A stretch of DNA of 38,122 nt from a virus (taxonomy: Duplodnaviria > Heunggongvirae > Uroviricota > Caudoviricetes): the IMG/VR virus record IMGVR_UViG_2698536574_000031; one strand, 5' to 3'. Made by a program: the position numbers and the translations under genes. Positions within the stretch are counted from its first letter, which is position 1, and the number at the start of each line of letters is the position of its first letter. Positions 2,229 through 20,403 of this stretch are shown piece after piece. Under the pieces are notes generated by a model. That model did no database searches, was not told the DNA's origin, and saw only the letters and a program-made list of their open reading frames with translations.

Positions 2229-2264
2229 TCCCGCCAGCCATATCATGACCGGCGGGATTTTTTT
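2229..2264 (+). terminator. hairpin plus T7 tract oriented for the + strand, abutting the esterase stop codon
   Basis: Stem TCCCGCC / GGCGGGA with 15-nt loop followed by TTTTTTT on the + strand; an A-tract precedes it on the minus strand, so it may work bidirectionally. Confidence 0.35.
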
Positions 2265-4302
2265 ATTCTGTTACCGCTTTTTTCACTTCCACCACAATGC
2301 TGTCAATCAGCACCGGGTAAGTTGCATTTTTGGTGATATCCGTTACGCGGAGTTTGTCCACCGGGAAAGTTCCTACTGGTGACTGCGTCAGGGTAAACGC
2401 GGCACCATCCTGACCATCAATAACCGGAATAACCTGAAGGCTGTTATTTCCTGCAAAACGGAAGGCCAGCGTATGCCATTCATTATCAAATGCACCAAAG
2501 GTTCCCAGTTTCTGGTTATTTGTTGCCACTTTTGCATTGTGGTACATCACATTCAGGTCTTTTGCGTCTGTCTGGATGTAGAACGATGCCAGCAGATTAT
2601 TCCCTGCATCCCCTGTCAGGGTGACACCCTGCGGCAGAGAGGAAACCGGCCAGTAAAGCGCCATGACATACTGGTTTGCCACCAGGTCGCCAGGTACTTT
2701 AAAACGACAACTGATTAAACCACCATTTTTCAGCAGTTCAGCACCAGTACCGGCATCATGATCCAGATACCAGGATGATTTACCTGTTTCCTTGGTCAGT
2801 TTCATTGCCTTACCACCTGTGCCTCCTGCATCACTGATAATTTCAGCTTTACCGCCAGCCGGCTCCCAGCCCTGGGCTTTCAGATTTCCTTCTGACTCAC
2901 TGACACGGTAAGACAGCAGTGTTGTGGTTACTGCTTCAGTTTCTGAAGGTGATGGCACTGGTGCTTCAGTTTCAGAAGATGGAACATCGGCTTTTACTGT
3001 GGTTCGCCCTGCATGAGTCAGAACAGCCGTGGCCAGACGGTCAGAAATAATACCCCGGCGCGCCCAGGCACTGAAATGGCTGGCCCGGTCCGCAGATGTC
3101 CAGGTAGCGGCACTGTTACGCCACGTTGAGCCGTAATAACCAATGGATTCAATATCCGGGTCTTCTGCCGGATTGTTGGTGGGTACATTCACGCCATTTT
3201 CATCTGTCATTAATGGAACGAAATGAATGTTTTTATCTGTTTTGTTTTTGTAGCCGCCATAGATTGCCTGGTATGCTGGTTCATTTTTCTGTTTCCAGAA
3301 ATACGTGGTATCGCCACAAATCCACGGAACGCCAGCAGCACTGCCACCGGTACACTGTTCCGCCTGTTCAGCCAGGTCTGCGCGGAATTTTTCCACCATC
3401 GCCAGAAACAGCGCAGAATGCTCCGTCGGCTTCGCATCAATATCAAACTCGCCCTGCATCCACACCACAGCAAGCAGGCGGTTTTTCGGGTTCTTCGCCA
3501 GTGCCGCTTTTGTCCGGCTGATTAAGTCCTTATACAGCGGCTTATCCACACCCCAGCGGGCTGAGTCCTCTGAAGCACCCGTGCTGTCACTGTACGTGCC
3601 GTCAGCACCCACCGTGAATGCAGAACCACCACGGCAGCAGGGAACCAGCAGAATCCCCGCATCTGCCGGAATAAACGGCAGCAGTTTTTTGGCAATGTGA
3701 AGCCCCTGACCCACGGTGCCATATTGCCCTTTAGCCACATCCGCTTTCGGGTGATTTTTTCCACTCATATCCTGCACATCATGCAGACAGTGGTCGGCCA
3801 GAATGATGTCGTTATACTGACAGGCTTTACCTCCCGGCGTGACTGTACTGCGACGGGCTAACTGCATAATACGCGGTTCGGGGCGGTCATATGTCTCCGG
3901 CAGTGGCAGACCTTCACCGTAAGCCATACCGTTTGACTGACCAGCAAGAACCACCACGTAATACCAGGAAGGGGAGCCGGAAGCAGTTTCATTTCCTGAC
4001 GGACGGGTATGTGTTTCAGCATTATCCCAGTCTGACGGTTCAGCAGTACCGGCAACATCAGCACTTAACGGAATGACCGCACCAATACCCGCTCCGGTAA
4101 TTTCCACACTCGGATCACCGGATACTGGCCTTACCCACAGGCAATCCCGGGTATTAAAACTGATGAGACAGTCAGCAAATGTCATTCCTCCTTTTGTTTC
4201 GGCCGGAGGAAAGGGAGCCTCAAGAAATGCCGCTGTACCACCGGAAACTTTAACAGTAAAGTTTCCGGGCATTGATGATAGTTGAACCCATTTGGACGTC
4301 AT
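2263..4302 (-). CDS. SGNH-hydrolase esterase, sialate O-acetylesterase (NanS/SASA)-like, with N-terminal extension and C-terminal lectin-like domain (679 aa)
   Basis: VVLAGQSNGMAYGEG matches the GQSN block of SASA/DUF303 carbohydrate esterases; about 100-aa N-terminal region and about 200-aa C-terminal Gly/Thr-rich beta-type region; co-directional with the late genes. Confidence 0.65.
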   Translation of the reverse strand: MTSKWVQLSSMPGNFTVKVSGGTAAFLEAPFPPAETKGGMTFADCLISFNTRDCLWVRPVSGDPSVEITGAGIGAVIPLSADVAGTAEPSDWDNAETHTRPSGNETASGSPSWYYVVVLAGQSNGMAYGEGLPLPETYDRPEPRIMQLARRSTVTPGGKACQYNDIILADHCLHDVQDMSGKNHPKADVAKGQYGTVGQGLHIAKKLLPFIPADAGILLVPCCRGGSAFTVGADGTYSDSTGASEDSARWGVDKPLYKDLISRTKAALAKNPKNRLLAVVWMQGEFDIDAKPTEHSALFLAMVEKFRADLAEQAEQCTGGSAAGVPWICGDTTYFWKQKNEPAYQAIYGGYKNKTDKNIHFVPLMTDENGVNVPTNNPAEDPDIESIGYYGSTWRNSAATWTSADRASHFSAWARRGIISDRLATAVLTHAGRTTVKADVPSSETEAPVPSPSETEAVTTTLLSYRVSESEGNLKAQGWEPAGGKAEIISDAGGTGGKAMKLTKETGKSSWYLDHDAGTGAELLKNGGLISCRFKVPGDLVANQYVMALYWPVSSLPQGVTLTGDAGNNLLASFYIQTDAKDLNVMYHNAKVATNNQKLGTFGAFDNEWHTLAFRFAGNNSLQVIPVIDGQDGAAFTLTQSPVGTFPVDKLRVTDITKNATYPVLIDSIVVEVKKAVTE

Positions 4303-4401: not shown

Positions 4402-4962
4402 TTATTTTTCCGAAACGCTCGCAGGATAATAACGATAAAGGGTTGAAAGACCGATATCAAAAATAAGTGCCACCTGTCTTCGACTGACACCCCCGGCCAG
4501 TAAACGCCCGACCTGCTCGTATTGTTCCTGCGTGAGACGGCGGGGTCTGCCGCCGGTTCGTCCCCTTTCACGGGCAGCTGCAAGACCAGCCCGTGTCCGT
4601 TCGACAATTAATTCACGCTCCATTTCTGCCAGCGCACCCATTATGTGAAAAAAGAAGCGCCCCATGGGGGTTGACGTATCAATGTTGTCAGTAAGACTAC
4701 GAAAATTTATCCCCTGTTGCTGTAATTCATCTGTCAGCGCAACAAGGTGGCGCATACTGCGCCCCAGCCTGTCCAGTTTCCAGACCATCAGCGTGTCACC
4801 GGGTTTTAGTTTCTTCAGTGCCCGCTTCAGTCCCGGCCGCTGTGTCGTTTTACCACTCATTTTGTCTTCAAAAATCTGCTCACATCCTGCACATTCCAGC
4901 GCATTTCTTTGTAAACCGGTGTTCTGGTCATTTGTTGATACGCGTATATAGCCAATCAGCAT
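4402..4962 (-). CDS. gin: Gin/Hin/Cin/Pin-family serine DNA invertase
   Basis: MLIGYIRVSTNDQNTGLQ... has the catalytic Ser at position 9-10 and a C-terminal HTH (GLSTLYRY), 186 aa; lies immediately outside a gix-like site. Confidence 0.9.
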   Translation of the reverse strand: MLIGYIRVSTNDQNTGLQRNALECAGCEQIFEDKMSGKTTQRPGLKRALKKLKPGDTLMVWKLDRLGRSMRHLVALTDELQQQGINFRSLTDNIDTSTPMGRFFFHIMGALAEMERELIVERTRAGLAAARERGRTGGRPRRLTQEQYEQVGRLLAGGVSRRQVALIFDIGLSTLYRYYPASVSEK

Positions 4963-10776: not shown

Positions 10777-12130
10777 TAATCACCTCCACTGAATGGCCTC
10801 CGGGAATGAACAGCGGATCAACAATACCGTTACGGCGCACAAAACGTTGCCAGCCGGTACTGTTCCCGGTGGCACGGTACAGGGTCACCAGTGCAGGCTC
10901 GGTGGTACGTACAGTCACTACTGTTGCACCGGGTAGCTGAACTCCCCGTGTATTCAGATCCTCTGTCAGTGCCAGTCTGGCATCACGAAGCGTCAGCGCC
11001 GTGGCGGTATACCCCTGCCCGGACAGTGTCATCACCTGCCGTTCGAGCGCTTCGCTTAAGTCACGGTTAATGCGCTGAAGATCAACTGAACTTTCCAGCC
11101 AGACAGGCCAGGTACGGTGGGCTGCGTCACTGTCCGGCAGGGTTTCCTGACTGAGAACCTGATCCAGCAGTTTTCCCACGGTCTGTGCCTGGGCCACCAC
11201 GGCAGCACTCTGCATTACCGCCCGTATCAGACGAATATTCTTTTGTGCTGCCGGTGTCAGACCGATGAGAGTCTGCGGATTATCCTGCTCATCCAGCACG
11301 TAACGCAGGGAAGATAATGTCCTGTACAGTTGTGGCATTCCCTGAGCGACGGCGGATGTCGTCCGGCCGATACTGCCACCGGGCCGGGTATTCAGGCCTC
11401 CTGAAGACAGTGACGGCAGCGATGGCAGGGTGATCAGGGCACTGAAAAGCCCCGCAAAAGATGAGGCCATGCGGGAAGGTGCTGTCAGTAATGCCGTGGC
11501 ATTCCCTTTCAGCGCCGTGAACGTGGCAGTAAAGGCACTGATATCCTGTACAATCCCCATGCCGGAAACGGCATTTTCCAGGGCGGACACCTTATCACTG
11601 ATGGTTTCGGTCATTGCCTGGACATCGTGCATTCCGTCAGAGATCACCGTCCAGCCCGCTTCCAGGGTTTCAAAAACCTGCCCGAGCGCGGTGGTACTCT
11701 TCTGCTCCAGAATGGCGGCCGTGTCCTGTGTGACAGCAGGTGCGGTATCATCACTTACCGGCGTGACATTAATGGTGAACTCAACCACGCCCTGTTCAGC
11801 GGCGTTATAACGACTTTCAAAGCTGTTTATCAGCACATTTAACGTGCCGTAATCCGGGTGAAGCAGCTCCCCGGCACCGGGAGCACGAAGGGCATCACGC
11901 AGACGATTTCGCTGTGTCTGAACATCATCCCCCATCACAAGTACACTGAACGTAAATTCAGTCAGTTTAGGTCCCAGATCGTCTGCCCCACCGGTTTCCC
12001 GTAACGGATATTCCCGACGGACAATGTTTCGCCCACCACGTTCGCGCTGCTCACGCCAGACGAGGAACGGCACACCACGGAACGCACCACGACCGTCACC
12101 AGAGGCCATAATTCCCTCCGTTCCAGACAT
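10760..12130 (-). CDS. DNA circularisation protein N-like tail protein (Mu gp43-like)
   Basis: 456 aa; synteny. Confidence 0.6.
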   Translation of the reverse strand: MSGTEGIMASGDGRGAFRGVPFLVWREQRERGGRNIVRREYPLRETGGADDLGPKLTEFTFSVLVMGDDVQTQRNRLRDALRAPGAGELLHPDYGTLNVLINSFESRYNAAEQGVVEFTINVTPVSDDTAPAVTQDTAAILEQKSTTALGQVFETLEAGWTVISDGMHDVQAMTETISDKVSALENAVSGMGIVQDISAFTATFTALKGNATALLTAPSRMASSFAGLFSALITLPSLPSLSSGGLNTRPGGSIGRTTSAVAQGMPQLYRTLSSLRYVLDEQDNPQTLIGLTPAAQKNIRLIRAVMQSAAVVAQAQTVGKLLDQVLSQETLPDSDAAHRTWPVWLESSVDLQRINRDLSEALERQVMTLSGQGYTATALTLRDARLALTEDLNTRGVQLPGATVVTVRTTEPALVTLYRATGNSTGWQRFVRRNGIVDPLFIPGGHSVEVISEQQG

Positions 12131-14171
12131 TCACATCCAGTCCGTGACCGGACGTGTCATCAATATCAATACTGCGAGCCTGCCACCCTTCCGGGGCAAC
12201 CAGCTCCACACGGGCAGAGGCTTTTTGTACCGCCTGTCCACTGCTTTCATCATCACTGCCCCGTAATTTCTGCCAGGCTTCAGTCAGCCATCCCCCCAGA
12301 TAGTTACCGAGATAGCTGCCCACCGTAGAACCAATGGCAATCCCCACAGGTCCGGCTGCCGCCCCCAGCGCACCACCGGCAATACTGCCTGCAAGAGAGC
12401 CGACCGCTTCTCCCTTGTCTGTGGCACTGGCGCTGCCATCCAGCAGAACCGGGGCTGCCATCGCGCCAGCCCACAGGGCACCTCCACCCAGCCGGCCGGC
12501 CAGTCCACCGGCACTGCGGAAAAAGCCGGAGAAACGCCCCAGCCCCATGCGGCTACCGACAGACGAAAGTAACCCACCGGCGCGCCCCATCATGCGCCCC
12601 CAGAACCCTGCCCCACCAGAAGAGGGAGACGGTGGCACTGGGGACGGTGGCAGGGGAGGCGTGACCGGTCTTCCGCGCCCCGGTCCGCGTTTCCTGCGGC
12701 CCCGCCCCTGACGTCCGCCTGAGGATGTATCGGTCGCGCCGGTGCCGGACAGTCCTCCTGTGGGCCAGTTTGTTACAAGTACTGGCTGAACGGCTGCCGG
12801 ATTTACCCCGGTAAGAAAGTTTATAAAACGTTGCCCTCGTCCCTGAGATGTGCCTGGTGGTGTTCCGGCCGGAGGAGAGCGCCGGAAAGGTGAGGTAAGG
12901 AAGGCCGCCGCTGATAATCCGTATCCCAGCAATGCAGCACCCGGACGTATAATCCCCGTTCCGACAGCCCGCGCCATTTTCAGGGCACGGGTGGCGAGAT
13001 ACATGTACAGCAGGTATTTCGCGGCGGTCTGTGCCCCCTGACCAATGCGATCCAGCGCATCACCATAGCCCGCATCCCGCAGAGCCTGAAGCGTGTCGCG
13101 TACCTTTCTGATCGCCCGATAAAACCCTGTCACTGCATCACGGGCATACTCAAAGCCCTGGTTCATGGCTGATGCCGTACTTTCCGCCAGGGAATGGTAA
13201 CTGCCATCAGATTTGGCACTGTCAACCCATGAAAGAAATCCCCTGAGATTACCCTTCAGTTTTTCAAATGGCCCACTGTCCATCACATCCCGGGCAAACT
13301 GATCCCAGACGTCACCCATCATGGCCGTCAGGCCACTCCAGGAATTCATTGCGTCCTTTTGTGCTCCCCTGGCCTGTTCCGCCAGCGTCTGAAATAACAG
13401 GCGAATACTGTCCGGCCCAAGCAGCCCTTTTTCACCAAGTTTTCTGACCACTTTCTGGTCCACACCCAGACGATCAGCCAGCACGCGGTAGGCATTAATG
13501 CCGTAGGTGGCAAGAATATTTGCATCCGCTGCCTGAATACTGCCTCTTGCATACATCTGTTTCAGTTGCAGGGATGCCCCCTGTGCATCGGACAGTGACC
13601 AGCCGCCCACGGCACCCTGATCCTGAAGCATGGTGACAAAATTTCGGGCCTCCCTGTCACTCATACCAAAGCCCAGACTGGACGTATATTCCTGCATGAC
13701 GCCAGCCAGCCCCCAGGTGGTTTCCTTCGCATTCTGTATTGCCCACCTGCGGACATCATCAGTTTTCGCCCGATCCCCTTTGTAAAGGGAGTTCAGGCGA
13801 ATCATATAGGTTTCCATCTCCGCTGCCGGGCGAATAAATCCCCGGTTAAAGCCATATACAGCTGCACCACCGGCCAGCATTCCGTAAAGATTGCTGATCC
13901 GCCCGATGGTGCCGGTAATACTGCCCTGAAGACGGTCAAAATCAGAAGTGACATGGCGGATACTGCCCCGCACCCCGGCCAGCGTGCGCTGCATCCTGCT
14001 TCCGAGTACATCTGTTTCCTGCCCGGCACGGCGGGCCGCATTTCCCAGACCACCCAGCCCCGCCTGGCCGGAGCGTGAGAATGCCCCCAGCTCCTGAGAC
14101 CACTGGCGGGATTTGGCTGAGATATTGCCGAGCAAATCAACTATCAGAGATGCTCTGAGATTTCGGGCCAT
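12096..14171 (-). CDS. tail tape measure protein
   Basis: 691 aa; long helical N-terminal part and Gly/Pro-rich C-terminal third (GRGRRKRGPGRGRPVTPPLPPSPVPPSPSSGG...). Confidence 0.8.
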   Translation of the reverse strand: MARNLRASLIVDLLGNISAKSRQWSQELGAFSRSGQAGLGGLGNAARRAGQETDVLGSRMQRTLAGVRGSIRHVTSDFDRLQGSITGTIGRISNLYGMLAGGAAVYGFNRGFIRPAAEMETYMIRLNSLYKGDRAKTDDVRRWAIQNAKETTWGLAGVMQEYTSSLGFGMSDREARNFVTMLQDQGAVGGWSLSDAQGASLQLKQMYARGSIQAADANILATYGINAYRVLADRLGVDQKVVRKLGEKGLLGPDSIRLLFQTLAEQARGAQKDAMNSWSGLTAMMGDVWDQFARDVMDSGPFEKLKGNLRGFLSWVDSAKSDGSYHSLAESTASAMNQGFEYARDAVTGFYRAIRKVRDTLQALRDAGYGDALDRIGQGAQTAAKYLLYMYLATRALKMARAVGTGIIRPGAALLGYGLSAAAFLTSPFRRSPPAGTPPGTSQGRGQRFINFLTGVNPAAVQPVLVTNWPTGGLSGTGATDTSSGGRQGRGRRKRGPGRGRPVTPPLPPSPVPPSPSSGGAGFWGRMMGRAGGLLSSVGSRMGLGRFSGFFRSAGGLAGRLGGGALWAGAMAAPVLLDGSASATDKGEAVGSLAGSIAGGALGAAAGPVGIAIGSTVGSYLGNYLGGWLTEAWQKLRGSDDESSGQAVQKASARVELVAPEGWQARSIDIDDTSGHGLDVNVWNGGNYGLW

Positions 14172-16904: not shown

Positions 16905-17465
16905 TTACAGTTCCTCCGGCGGTTCGACCGCCGTTGTCGTGTTCCCCGGCAAATCAATATGTGCCTCAAACGGCGGCGTACCGGGCGGCTCCACAAAGGT
17001 TTCGTAATGACGCAGGAAGTCGTCCAGCGAGCTGATATCGGTCAGCGGTGCGATCATTTCCTCGCAGGAGAAATAAAGCGCATACATCACCGCACCACTG
17101 TCCGCCTGGGTTTCGGTGTAACCGTTGACCGCCTTTTCAAAGTAAAGCGGTGAGGTTTTTTCTGTTCTGAAGCCGTTAAGCACGGCAATCAGCCGGGCCA
17201 CAATCTGATACAGTCCGGGGCGGCTGGCCTCACGCCCGTTGAGCATGTCGCCAATGACGTAGAACACCCAGTGACTGACCAGGCGACCACGGGTACGGCC
17301 TTCACCGGCACCCAGCCAGGCAACGTAGATCGCCGGGGCGTTAATCAGCATGGTGCGCAGTACGCTGTCGCTCCAGTCGCCGGGATGCGTGTCAACAGAC
17401 ACCAGTTCATTCCCGAAATACTCACGGATGCGGGCGATGTATGCCTGTTCGGTTTCCGTAATCAT
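16905..17465 (-). CDS. head-tail joining protein (Mu gp37-like)
   Basis: 186 aa; synteny. Confidence 0.5.
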   Translation of the reverse strand: MITETEQAYIARIREYFGNELVSVDTHPGDWSDSVLRTMLINAPAIYVAWLGAGEGRTRGRLVSHWVFYVIGDMLNGREASRPGLYQIVARLIAVLNGFRTEKTSPLYFEKAVNGYTETQADSGAVMYALYFSCEEMIAPLTDISSLDDFLRHYETFVEPPGTPPFEAHIDLPGNTTTAVEPPEEL

Positions 17466-17881
17466 ACGAAGCCCTTCTGGTTGCGCCCGAATACCGCTGC
17501 ATCAGACTGAACCTGCGGTAAATCCCCGGATTCAGGGGCTGCACCGTTCGTATCCACACCGACCGGCACATTGCCGTTCATGACATCTTTCAGCCAGGCC
17601 AGCGCTTCACGGTAACGGTCACGCGCCTGATCGGAGGCTCGCTGATCGCACAGGTAATAAAAGGCAATCGCGCAACAGTGCTGAACAAGAACAGCCGGGA
17701 TAACCTCCAGCGGCAGCGTGTAACGGGCGGACAGATAGCTGTCGATAAGGGCTGACGCATCTGTCAGCGCCCGGTTCAGCTTGCGCGTGTCCGGCTCATC
17801 CGAACGGGGCACAGCCAGTAACGGCCTGAGCAAATCCTCGCGGTAACGCGCCCGCATATCGGTTTCAGTGGCGTAATTCAT
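17462..17881 (-). CDS. head-tail connector protein (Mu gp36-like)
   Basis: 139 aa; synteny. Confidence 0.5.
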   Translation of the reverse strand: MNYATETDMRARYREDLLRPLLAVPRSDEPDTRKLNRALTDASALIDSYLSARYTLPLEVIPAVLVQHCCAIAFYYLCDQRASDQARDRYREALAWLKDVMNGNVPVGVDTNGAAPESGDLPQVQSDAAVFGRNQKGFV

Positions 17882-18288
17882 GCACGGGCCTGTTTCGCTT
17901 TGTTACCGGTCTTTTTCCGGGGAGCATCCTGTCCGGCTTCGGCTTCGGCTTCGGCTTCGGCTTCGGCTTCGGCTTCGGCTTCGGCTTCGGCTTCGGCTTC
18001 GGCTCCGGCTAAATCTGTACCGGCCACTGCATGAACCACACCCGCCACGCTCCCCGCATCATCAGCAGACGTCTGTAGTATTCGCACAGTGAGGCATGGC
18101 TCCGCCTCCAGTCGGGCAAGCTGCTCCGGGGTGACCTCAACCTGCTGACGTCCACGCGTGAACAGAAACCCCGCACGACGAAACGCCGAACGACTGCAAC
18201 GCACTTCTGCCAGCACCGTGACAGAATTGTCACCACTGACCTGAAGACCTGAATCATCTGTTGCTGCCACAGTGTGATGTTCATTCAT
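17878..18288 (-). CDS. hypothetical head-region protein with C-terminal (EA)11 tract and basic tail
   Basis: 136 aa; ...LAGA(EA)11GQDAPRKKTGNKAKQARA. Confidence 0.5.
   Translation of the reverse strand: MNEHHTVAATDDSGLQVSGDNSVTVLAEVRCSRSAFRRAGFLFTRGRQQVEVTPEQLARLEAEPCLTVRILQTSADDAGSVAGVVHAVAGTDLAGAEAEAEAEAEAEAEAEAEAEAEAGQDAPRKKTGNKAKQARA
17935..18006. repeat. perfect hexanucleotide tandem repeat (GGCTTC)x11 plus one degenerate unit GGCTCC
   Basis: Read directly: 66 bp of uninterrupted GGCTTC followed by GGCTCC; in frame with ORF 17878..18288. Confidence 0.95.
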
Positions 18289-18331: not shown

Positions 18332-19279
18332 TTACAGATAATCCGCGACAACCAGCTCCAGCTTGCCCTTCATCTCGTTAGAGACGGTTGCGTTTCCGTC
18401 TGCGAACAGTTCACGCTCCAGCAGCTGCACCGCCTGTTTTTCCAGCGAGGTGGGGACAACAATATGGGTGGGTTTGATGCCGAGTTTGCGGCCACCGTCA
18501 GCGGTAAATTCGCGCATGGCTGACCAGCCGTGCCACAGTGCATCCAGCGTCAGCGGTGACTGCATCATGTAGGCCATCTGCCAGAAGCCGTAGCCCACAT
18601 TGCGACGGGCGGAAGCACCGAACACAAATTCGTTATCGGTGAATGCGCGACCTTCATCGACTTTGGTCTGGGCAACCAGTTCAGCCTTACGGCGATCCTG
18701 ATAAATCAGCGGTTTGATTGCGCGTGAACAGTCGAGCAGATACCAGGCAGGACCGCTGTAATCCGCCTGTGCACCGACAGAGCCGGTTTTTGCCACAAAC
18801 ATATTGCTGACCATCTGCGCATCCCCGGAGCCATCCACTTTGGGGTAAACCGGATGTTCGGTATCAAAGAAGTTCTGACCGTCATAGCAGGCCGCACTGA
18901 TCCCGTCACGCAGGGCAGCAAAGACCAGCTCATCCGGTTGTACCGCCGCAGCGCGCCCCATCTCCTGGAACAACGGGGAATAAATACCGAGGTTGTCGTC
19001 TTCGAAGTCATCGCGGCTAATGGCGACAGTGCCTTCAAAAGTTTTGTTCACGATGGCATAGCCATAGGCTTTCATCTTCTCGATGACGCGGGAGCCGATC
19101 CACTCACGGAACTGCGGGAACTGCCCCAGCCAGCCGTAGGTGTTGGATTTCGATGTGGAGGGCACGGTCATCGCAATTTTTTTGTACTGCGACGGGGCCA
19201 TGGACATCCCGGCCTGAAAATCAGAACGGTAGCCCGTCATCAGGGCGGTGATCATCGCCGGTGTAATCGGGGTAGGCAT
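18332..19279 (-). CDS. major capsid protein (Mu T-like)
   Basis: 315 aa immediately after the protease/scaffold gene. Confidence 0.8.
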   Translation of the reverse strand: MPTPITPAMITALMTGYRSDFQAGMSMAPSQYKKIAMTVPSTSKSNTYGWLGQFPQFREWIGSRVIEKMKAYGYAIVNKTFEGTVAISRDDFEDDNLGIYSPLFQEMGRAAAVQPDELVFAALRDGISAACYDGQNFFDTEHPVYPKVDGSGDAQMVSNMFVAKTGSVGAQADYSGPAWYLLDCSRAIKPLIYQDRRKAELVAQTKVDEGRAFTDNEFVFGASARRNVGYGFWQMAYMMQSPLTLDALWHGWSAMREFTADGGRKLGIKPTHIVVPTSLEKQAVQLLERELFADGNATVSNEMKGKLELVVADYL

Positions 19280-20403
19280 TATTGCATTTCCTCTTTCATT
19301 TTCAGGAACTCGGCTTCGGTTTTACCCAGCAGTTTGGCGGCCGCGATATCTTCAGCCGACAGCACAGCGGTGGCAGTCTTTTTATCCGGCACGGTCACGG
19401 TGTCGGTCTGAAGGCCGGTCAGGGCCGCAACCGGCTGGCGGGCGTCAAGCTGTGCAGAAAGTGCCGCCACGCCAATCTGCCCGCCCAGTTGTTCCAGATA
19501 GCCGCGTTCACTTTTGAAGATGCGTCCTTCGGACTCGGCCTTGTCCAGCAACTGCTCCAGCGTGGTGCTGCCGTGCTGCGCCGACAGCGCAACGTATTCG
19601 GTACGCAGGGCGTTATACGTTTCAACGGGCACGTATTTCGTCAGGTCAATACTGCCGCCAGCCGGTGTGCCTTTTGCAGTTTCCAGCTCTGCCGACAGAC
19701 TGGCGACCTGTGTTTTCAGGTTGTCGTGTGCATCCGCACGGGTTTTGATCCCGGTGAGGGCAGACAGCGCTGCCGTGCCCAGCTCCGGCGTAAATTCGTC
19801 ACCGTCAGCCACGGTCAGACCGAGCGCCGTCAGCAACTGGCGTAATTGCTCATTCATGGAGGTATCCTTTAAAGGAGGGTTTAAGGCGTTATAAAGGTCA
19901 TCCGCCGACAGTGCGGCGACAGGATTCATGCCGGTCAGACCGGGGTCACCGGTAATAGCCAGCATCCGAAGTTCGACAGGTTCGCCGGTGCTCTCGTCAT
20001 AGCCAATCACCGGTGAAAACCAGGGGAATTCGTTATTACGCAGATGTTCAAGGGCCGGAGGGTTCCACTTCGGGCGCACCTCGAAACCTCGCTCTTCACT
20101 GAAGCGAAAATTCTCCGGTGAGGCCATCACAAAACCGGCAGCCGGTGCCGGATGTCCCTCAATCAGGGTCTGGTGGTTGTAGTCAATTTTCACCGGCTGA
20201 TTGAGCGCCACAACCCGGGAGACCATGCGCTCAACGGCTGCATGGTTGATCAGCCAGCCCTCGGCCGGTTTTTCCGGGCGACCGTCACGGGCCTTTACCC
20301 GACCGGCTGGCATGATCTGACACCAGTCACCGTCCCCGTCTGCGGACAGGCTGATGGCATTCAGAATGGCATAAGCAAGTTTGGGCGTGTTTTTCGTCTT
20401 CAT
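19279..20403 (-). CDS. head maturation protease/scaffold protein (Mu I-like)
   Basis: 374 aa with Ala/Glu-rich helical C-terminal half. Confidence 0.75.
   Translation of the reverse strand: MKTKNTPKLAYAILNAISLSADGDGDWCQIMPAGRVKARDGRPEKPAEGWLINHAAVERMVSRVVALNQPVKIDYNHQTLIEGHPAPAAGFVMASPENFRFSEERGFEVRPKWNPPALEHLRNNEFPWFSPVIGYDESTGEPVELRMLAITGDPGLTGMNPVAALSADDLYNALNPPLKDTSMNEQLRQLLTALGLTVADGDEFTPELGTAALSALTGIKTRADAHDNLKTQVASLSAELETAKGTPAGGSIDLTKYVPVETYNALRTEYVALSAQHGSTTLEQLLDKAESEGRIFKSERGYLEQLGGQIGVAALSAQLDARQPVAALTGLQTDTVTVPDKKTATAVLSAEDIAAAKLLGKTEAEFLKMKEEMQ

Follow-up and report, generated by a model that had tools for sequence, protein, structure and literature searches.

A hypervariable hexanucleotide repeat in a Mu gp35-type gene of Sp18-like Escherichia coli prophages is the typing locus EHC-5

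Bacteriophage Mu gp35 and the Haemophilus FluMu protein HI1506 (PDB 2OUT) define a protein family (Pfam FluMu_N, PF17891) to which the gene product described here belongs, and the Bacillus subtilis prophage protein YqbF (PDB 2HJQ) is counted among the closest known systems. In an NMR study, HI1506 was reportedly found to have two domains linked by an unstructured stretch of ~30 residues, and a role in nucleic acid binding is said to have been suggested. In the cryo-EM study of the Mu virion, gp35 was called "probably structural" but was not resolved, and the capsid was described as being without cement proteins (PMC11915804). A separate literature concerns repeat-based outbreak typing. A locus named EHC-5 belongs to the MLVA scheme that Izumiya et al. 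2010 (Microbiol Immunol 54:569) introduced for EHEC O157, O26, and O111, as cited in PMC10062581. In the strain table of PMC10062581, EHC-5 has the value 0 in most O157 isolates and 2–14 in others, and isolates that share their values at the 16 remaining loci have unequal EHC-5 values (CEC18128 = 5, CEC18136 = 9).

We analyzed a 38 122-nucleotide stretch of viral DNA (IMG/VR record IMGVR_UViG_2698536574_000031), hereafter the window, which comprises nearly an entire Mu-like prophage, including MuA, MuB, a portal, a Gin-type invertase, and a C5 methylase. It contains a perfect (GGCTTC)n array that is identical with EHC-5, lies in a Mu gp35/HI1506-type gene of Sp18-like E. coli prophages, and is most probably a largely neutral, slippage-driven VNTR encoding a disordered and length-tolerant linker. 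The tract region is present at 93–99% identity in prophages of ~230 of 5426 complete E. coli genomes (228–232, depending on the query). Carriers are mostly STEC (O157:H7, O26, O111, O145, and O103), and one of the prophages is Sp18 of strain Sakai. Published work describes Sp18 as intact (PMC2669165) and able to transpose (PMC7430833), and the tract-bearing Mu-like prophage is mobile and probably intact. Sp18-like Mu prophages are also annotated inside Stx1a- and Stx2c-converting phages (LC727895.1, 26379–27776; LC727881.1, 53330–54709), and some E. coli genomes hold up to four copies of the tract region, as NZ_AP042574.1 does, observations consistent with ongoing transposition. The GC content of one prophage end is 0.455–0.50, compared with 0.55–0.59 in the structural genes. 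This end encodes, all on the minus strand, a C5 cytosine DNA methylase (1–1053), a protein with a SASA sialate-O-acetylesterase-type domain and DUF6645 (2263–4302), and the Gin-type invertase (4402–4962), which adjoins tail-fibre genes. In the tape measure protein (12096–14171, minus strand), a long low-complexity segment rich in Gly, Pro, Ser, and Arg (...GRQGRGRRKRGPGRGRPVTPPLPPSPVPPSPSSGGAG...) precedes stretches rich in Gly and Ala.

A Mu gp35-type gene with a divergent C-terminus

The array lies within a minus-strand gene (17878–18288) for a 136-residue protein, identified as Mu gp35/HI1506-related by phrog_3622, by FluMu_N, and by the RefSeq name of its orthologues ("HI1506-related protein"). 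FluMu_N matched residues 36–72 (18073–18183) with 37.2 bits against a Pfam gathering cut-off of 25.8, and 2OUT was the sole sequence match among solved structures (E = 4e-5). Only 19 matches came from a single-sequence search against 1.8 billion representatives, a search of one genome per species gave a single distant locus, a BFVD fold search returned uncharacterised proteins alone, and NCBIfam gave no match for the protein. The RefSeq record of the Sakai orthologue, ECs_4975 (locus L011), carries the name "DNA processing protein", unlike the PGAP name "HI1506-related protein"; we found no support for it.

Upstream of the gene is that of the Mu-like major head subunit gpT (18332–19279, minus strand), preceded by the protease gpI (19279–20403). 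Downstream is the Mu gp36 head-tail adaptor gene (17462–17881, minus strand), whose start codon overlaps the stop codon of the 136-residue ORF in an ATGA; gp37, DUF2635/gp38, and the sheath follow. The order gpT, gp35-type gene, gp36 recurs in Mu, in an Edwardsiella locus (L013), and in E. coli relatives. An earlier sequence-only reading of this DNA had placed the repeat in a gene between the major capsid and connector genes, and the annotation of the window bears this out, with gpT and gp36 in those positions. A search of the literature found no proteomics of Sp18-like phages.

AlphaFold2 modelled residues ~23–75 with pLDDT > 90. This part corresponds to the folded N-domain (residues 23–75; 18064–18222, minus strand), comprising a β-hairpin, a helix, and a strand. 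No structure was predicted beyond residue 78, and pLDDT was < 50 over most of residues 79–136, with averages of 43–49 per block of 10. The region after the N-domain begins with a non-repetitive linker segment (residues 76–94, DDAGSVAGVVHAVAGTDLA; 18007–18063, minus strand) and ends, after the repeat, in the basic C-terminal tail GQDAPRKKTGNKAKQARA (residues 119–136; 17881–17934, minus strand). Net charges are +3 for the folded core, −11 for the tract, and +5 for the tail. The EA tract is therefore predicted to sit in an intrinsically disordered segment joining the FluMu_N domain to the basic tail; the description of an acidic linker ahead of a basic tail in a head-region gene was correct, and the model adds that residues 79–136 are likely disordered. 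As a conjecture, the basic tail would fit a nucleic acid-binding role such as that said to have been proposed for HI1506.

The C-terminal part distinguishes the window protein from its characterized relatives. Mu gp35, HI1506, and the Edwardsiella homologue have a helical C-domain of ~50 residues (...NPEHFTAGGEPKVKAV...) without an EA tract, whereas the window protein has (EA)n and the basic tail. Phage Tongde and other homologues have the same conserved C-domain after the linker and likewise no EA tract. Linker residues 76–94 are common to the Edwardsiella homologue as far as ...GVVH; at the nucleotide level, similarity to the Edwardsiella gene runs to the GVVH codons and returns from the gp36 start, the sequence between being unrelated. 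The lack of similarity between these two points, together with the C-domain in relatives, indicates that in the E. coli Sp18-like lineage the tract and the 18-residue basic tail have replaced the helical C-domain of Mu gp35, a conclusion drawn from the alignments. The two-domain architecture of HI1506 was not found in the window protein, whose alignment lacks the C-domain and whose AlphaFold2 model is unstructured after residue 78; it is a C-terminally divergent member of the FluMu_N N-domain family. The possibility that the tract and tail arose from a frameshifted ancestral C-domain was rejected, as the Edwardsiella 3' region does not yield the tail in any of its three frames. A further candidate, that the Mu gp35 C-domain is HeH/SAP-like, was also rejected: a profile of ten C-domains matched neither a Pfam family of this kind nor any relevant PDB entry, 2OUT included.

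Members of the family have either the linker with the C-domain or unrelated A/E/K/D/P-rich tails. Seven distant FluMu_N proteins (P0086, P0150, P0152, P0153, P0155, P0157, and P0165) carry long A/E/K/D-rich low-complexity tails (e.g. AKAEAEAEAKAKAKAD), usually with basic ends. Two of them, P0152 and P0155, form a close pair with unequal tail lengths, a hint that these tails, too, gain and lose repeats. Three larger proteins (P0172, P0177, and P0180) have two tandem FluMu_N domains at the C-terminus, and P0180 additionally carries a helix-hairpin-helix DNA-binding domain at its N-terminus (Pfam HHH_5, E = 1.4e-8).

The repeat array, its copy number, and EHC-5

The perfect array spans 17935–18000 and reads (GAAGCC)x11 on the coding (minus) strand and (GGCTTC)x11 on the plus strand, encoding (Glu-Ala)11 as residues 97–118. 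Adjacent to it is a degenerate twelfth unit (18001–18006; GGAGCC on the minus strand, GGCTCC on the plus strand) with one mismatch, which encodes Gly95-Ala96; direct counts in related prophages gave GAAGCC at this position in most relatives. The (GGCTTC)x11 array of the sequence-only reading is thus real, and the 72 bp assigned to it comprise eleven perfect copies and one imperfect copy. The minus-strand translation of the 136-residue ORF ends in ...AVAGTDLAGA(EA)11GQDAPRKKTGNKAKQARA and the stop, in agreement with the (EA)11 tract and basic tail that had been described. Tandem Repeats Finder, run on the 38-kb window, reported 17934–18010 with period 6, 12.8 copies, 98% matches, and a score of 147; the runner-up array scored 46. 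A three-unit probe matched 10 times at the array and 0 times in 100 dinucleotide-preserving shuffles.

The primers of EHC-5, listed in S5 Table of PMC10062581, converge around the tract. The forward primer site lies at 18059–18081 (minus strand, 0 mismatches) and the reverse primer site at 17895–17917 (plus strand, 1 mismatch; exact in the flank sequence of relatives), giving an amplicon of 187 bp (17895–18081), where 0 matches are expected by chance. The window tract is the MLVA locus EHC-5. The MLVA locus EHC-6 is absent from the window. The hypervariability that the sequence-only reading had proposed is hence already established and in routine typing use.

Copy number varies widely among relatives. 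Pure (GGCTTC)n alleles counted directly in related prophages had n = 1, 8, 13, 14, 15, 16, 18, and 20. In 55 complete E. coli genomes sampled systematically from 229, with units converted from match lengths and one place taken per genome record, the tract had 1–17 units with a median of 9 and a nearly flat distribution. With a 421-bp query around the tract, match lengths differed in multiples of 6 bp, some together with a separate 9-bp insertion in the tail, and IMG/VR contigs covered 1–16 units across two sublineages of the gene. The clonal cattle isolates 121, 113, and 118 had n = 13, 14, and 15, respectively, as counted in long-read assemblies, which can miscount repeats. These three showed 0 differences in 20 349 flanking bp (10 175 left and 10 174 right of the tract) and had the same WP accession for each of the 25 other annotated proteins, so that the tract alone differs. 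Length variation is therefore active, as had been suspected, with 1–20 units in relatives and single-unit steps between clonal isolates. That the clonal differences are whole units, and that independent MLVA fragment analysis shows the same behaviour, argues against miscounting.

Copy-number change had also been predicted to keep the reading frame, and every full-length allele examined does remain in frame and share the basic tail, a 9-bp indel and point substitutions being the only departures. The 9-bp tail insertion (KKA; ...KQAKKARA instead of ...KQARA) occurred in 17 of the 55 sampled genomes, with short and long tracts alike, and is an independent second polymorphism; point variants of the tail in relatives include KAEQARA and KKAHA.

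The purity of the array, its whole-unit steps, and the unit differences between clonal isolates make slipped-strand mispairing during replication, adding or removing whole 6-bp units, the probable mechanism. Each such event would add or remove one Glu-Ala pair without a frameshift, as can be read directly from the sequence, and the frame would never be broken because 6 is a multiple of 3. On/off switching by frameshift or promoter change, as in a phase-variable gene, was not found here, the unit being 6 bp long and the array lying inside the ORF.

Draft assemblies often break at this locus. Two IMG/VR contigs (L015 and L018) end within the tract, and a collection of 15 billion proteins, from which the exact 136-residue protein is absent, has many "partial" versions ending in the EA run (P0056, P0062, P0067, P0087, and others). 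Long alleles thus tend to interrupt short-read assemblies and are consequently under-represented outside complete genomes. These breaks might suggest that assemblers created the repeat or its length differences, an explanation that we consider scarcely credible: hundreds of independent complete genomes have the tract, always in whole units and between identical flanks, and the PCR fragment sizes determined in MLVA surveillance provide an independent measure of this variation.

The purity of the array, which holds for the nucleotides as well as for the peptide, could also point to a DNA-level element, i.e. a cis site (an array bound by protein, or a signal for packaging, transposition, or regulation) whose coding is incidental. 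Slippage alone predicts the same purity, however, and we regard such a site as very improbable. Otherwise near-identical prophages carry anything from 1 to 20 copies, Mu and the Edwardsiella relative wholly lack the array, the array is in frame within an ORF with translational coupling to gp36, and the known central cis site of Mu, that for gyrase, has its annotated position elsewhere, in the interval from G to I.

Drift of a tolerant linker or a functional spacer

In the reading that we favor, of a largely neutral repeat driven by slippage, the tract would form a disordered spacer whose length is of little consequence, and alleles would drift between 1 and ~20 units. The predicted disorder, the broad allele distribution, and the diverse tails of the family all argue for such tolerance of spacer length, over at least 1–20 units. 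We infer that the (EA)n tract reflects largely neutral drift and is not a switch; the analysis yielded no sign that its length variation serves a function. The near-flat distribution up to ~20 units and the long pure arrays in two sublineages could nevertheless reflect selection for having a tract.

The high mutability of the locus also fits adaptive tuning of the contingency type, in which (EA)n length would modulate the gp35-like protein, through the reach of the tail or through DNA-mimicking auto-inhibition, and slippage would generate functionally different progeny. The tract charge (−11) is opposite to that of the tail (+5), and acidic or alanine-rich tails with basic ends recur in distant FluMu_N proteins (P0150, P0152, P0155, P0165, and P0086), so that an architecture of spacer plus basic end seems to be maintained; P0180, moreover, fuses two FluMu_N domains to HHH_5 (E = 1.4e-8). 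Set against this, values of n from 1 to 20 all occur in prophages whose neighbouring genes are seemingly intact, the distribution is as broad and flat as drift would give, on/off switching is impossible with a 6-bp unit, and tail composition is not conserved in relatives. On balance, adaptive tuning is unlikely. We give somewhat less credence to the idea that (EA)n is a functional, fast-evolving spacer, with the N-domain anchored to a head or neck component and interchangeable C-terminal modules contacting DNA. Those modules would, equally doubtfully, be the helical domain in Mu, the HhH fusion in P0180, and the basic tails here. If so, tract length would determine how far the basic tail reaches or how it is auto-inhibited, and slippage would give Sp18-like phages heritable and quickly reversible variation in packaging or in the particle.

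In practical terms, outbreak typing of EHEC already exploits the repeat as EHC-5. Its location on a mobile prophage explains null alleles and movement or multiplication within the genome, and the position of the tract inside a coding linker explains why every allele is tolerated. What is added here is modest, namely the coding context, the replacement of the C-terminal module as it appears from alignment, and a caution about long EHC-5 alleles, at which short-read assemblies frequently break and which draft genomes under-report. The natural series of 1–20 Glu-Ala pairs also provides a ready-made linker-length series for probing the gp35/HI1506 family.

Comparison with known systems

The EHC-5 tract shows no sign of an unusual mechanism, and its gene is an ordinary Mu-family gene. 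An analogous position is occupied in lambda by gpFI (Packaging_FI; PDB 2LSM), encoded between E (major capsid) and FII (head-tail joining). With 132 residues, gpFI is close in length to the window protein (136), and it too consists of a folded domain and an acidic flexible segment. The window protein had no Pfam match to PF14000 (Packaging_FI), and an hhalign family alignment against gpFI returned a probability of 0.06%. A capsid decoration protein of the JBD30 gp39 or T4 Soc β-tadpole type was considered because JBD30 gp39 is also encoded directly after a Mu-like capsid gene, and was rejected, no structural match being found.

Compared with EHC-5 as described for typing, the window tract has the same 6-bp unit, and the ranges overlap (2–14 repeats in O157, 1–20 in genomes). 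EHC-5 is null where the prophage is absent and variable between strains, and the window locus behaves in the same way. In the typing literature consulted, EHC-5 figures as a size marker alone, and neither the encoded (EA)n linker nor the gp35-type gene was found described there. Contingency loci, such as the phase-variable genes of Haemophilus, Neisseria, and phages, likewise carry a pure short repeat within a gene, at which slippage far exceeds point mutation. These loci switch on and off by frameshift, whereas in the window tract the unit is a multiple of three and the length of the peptide alone changes.
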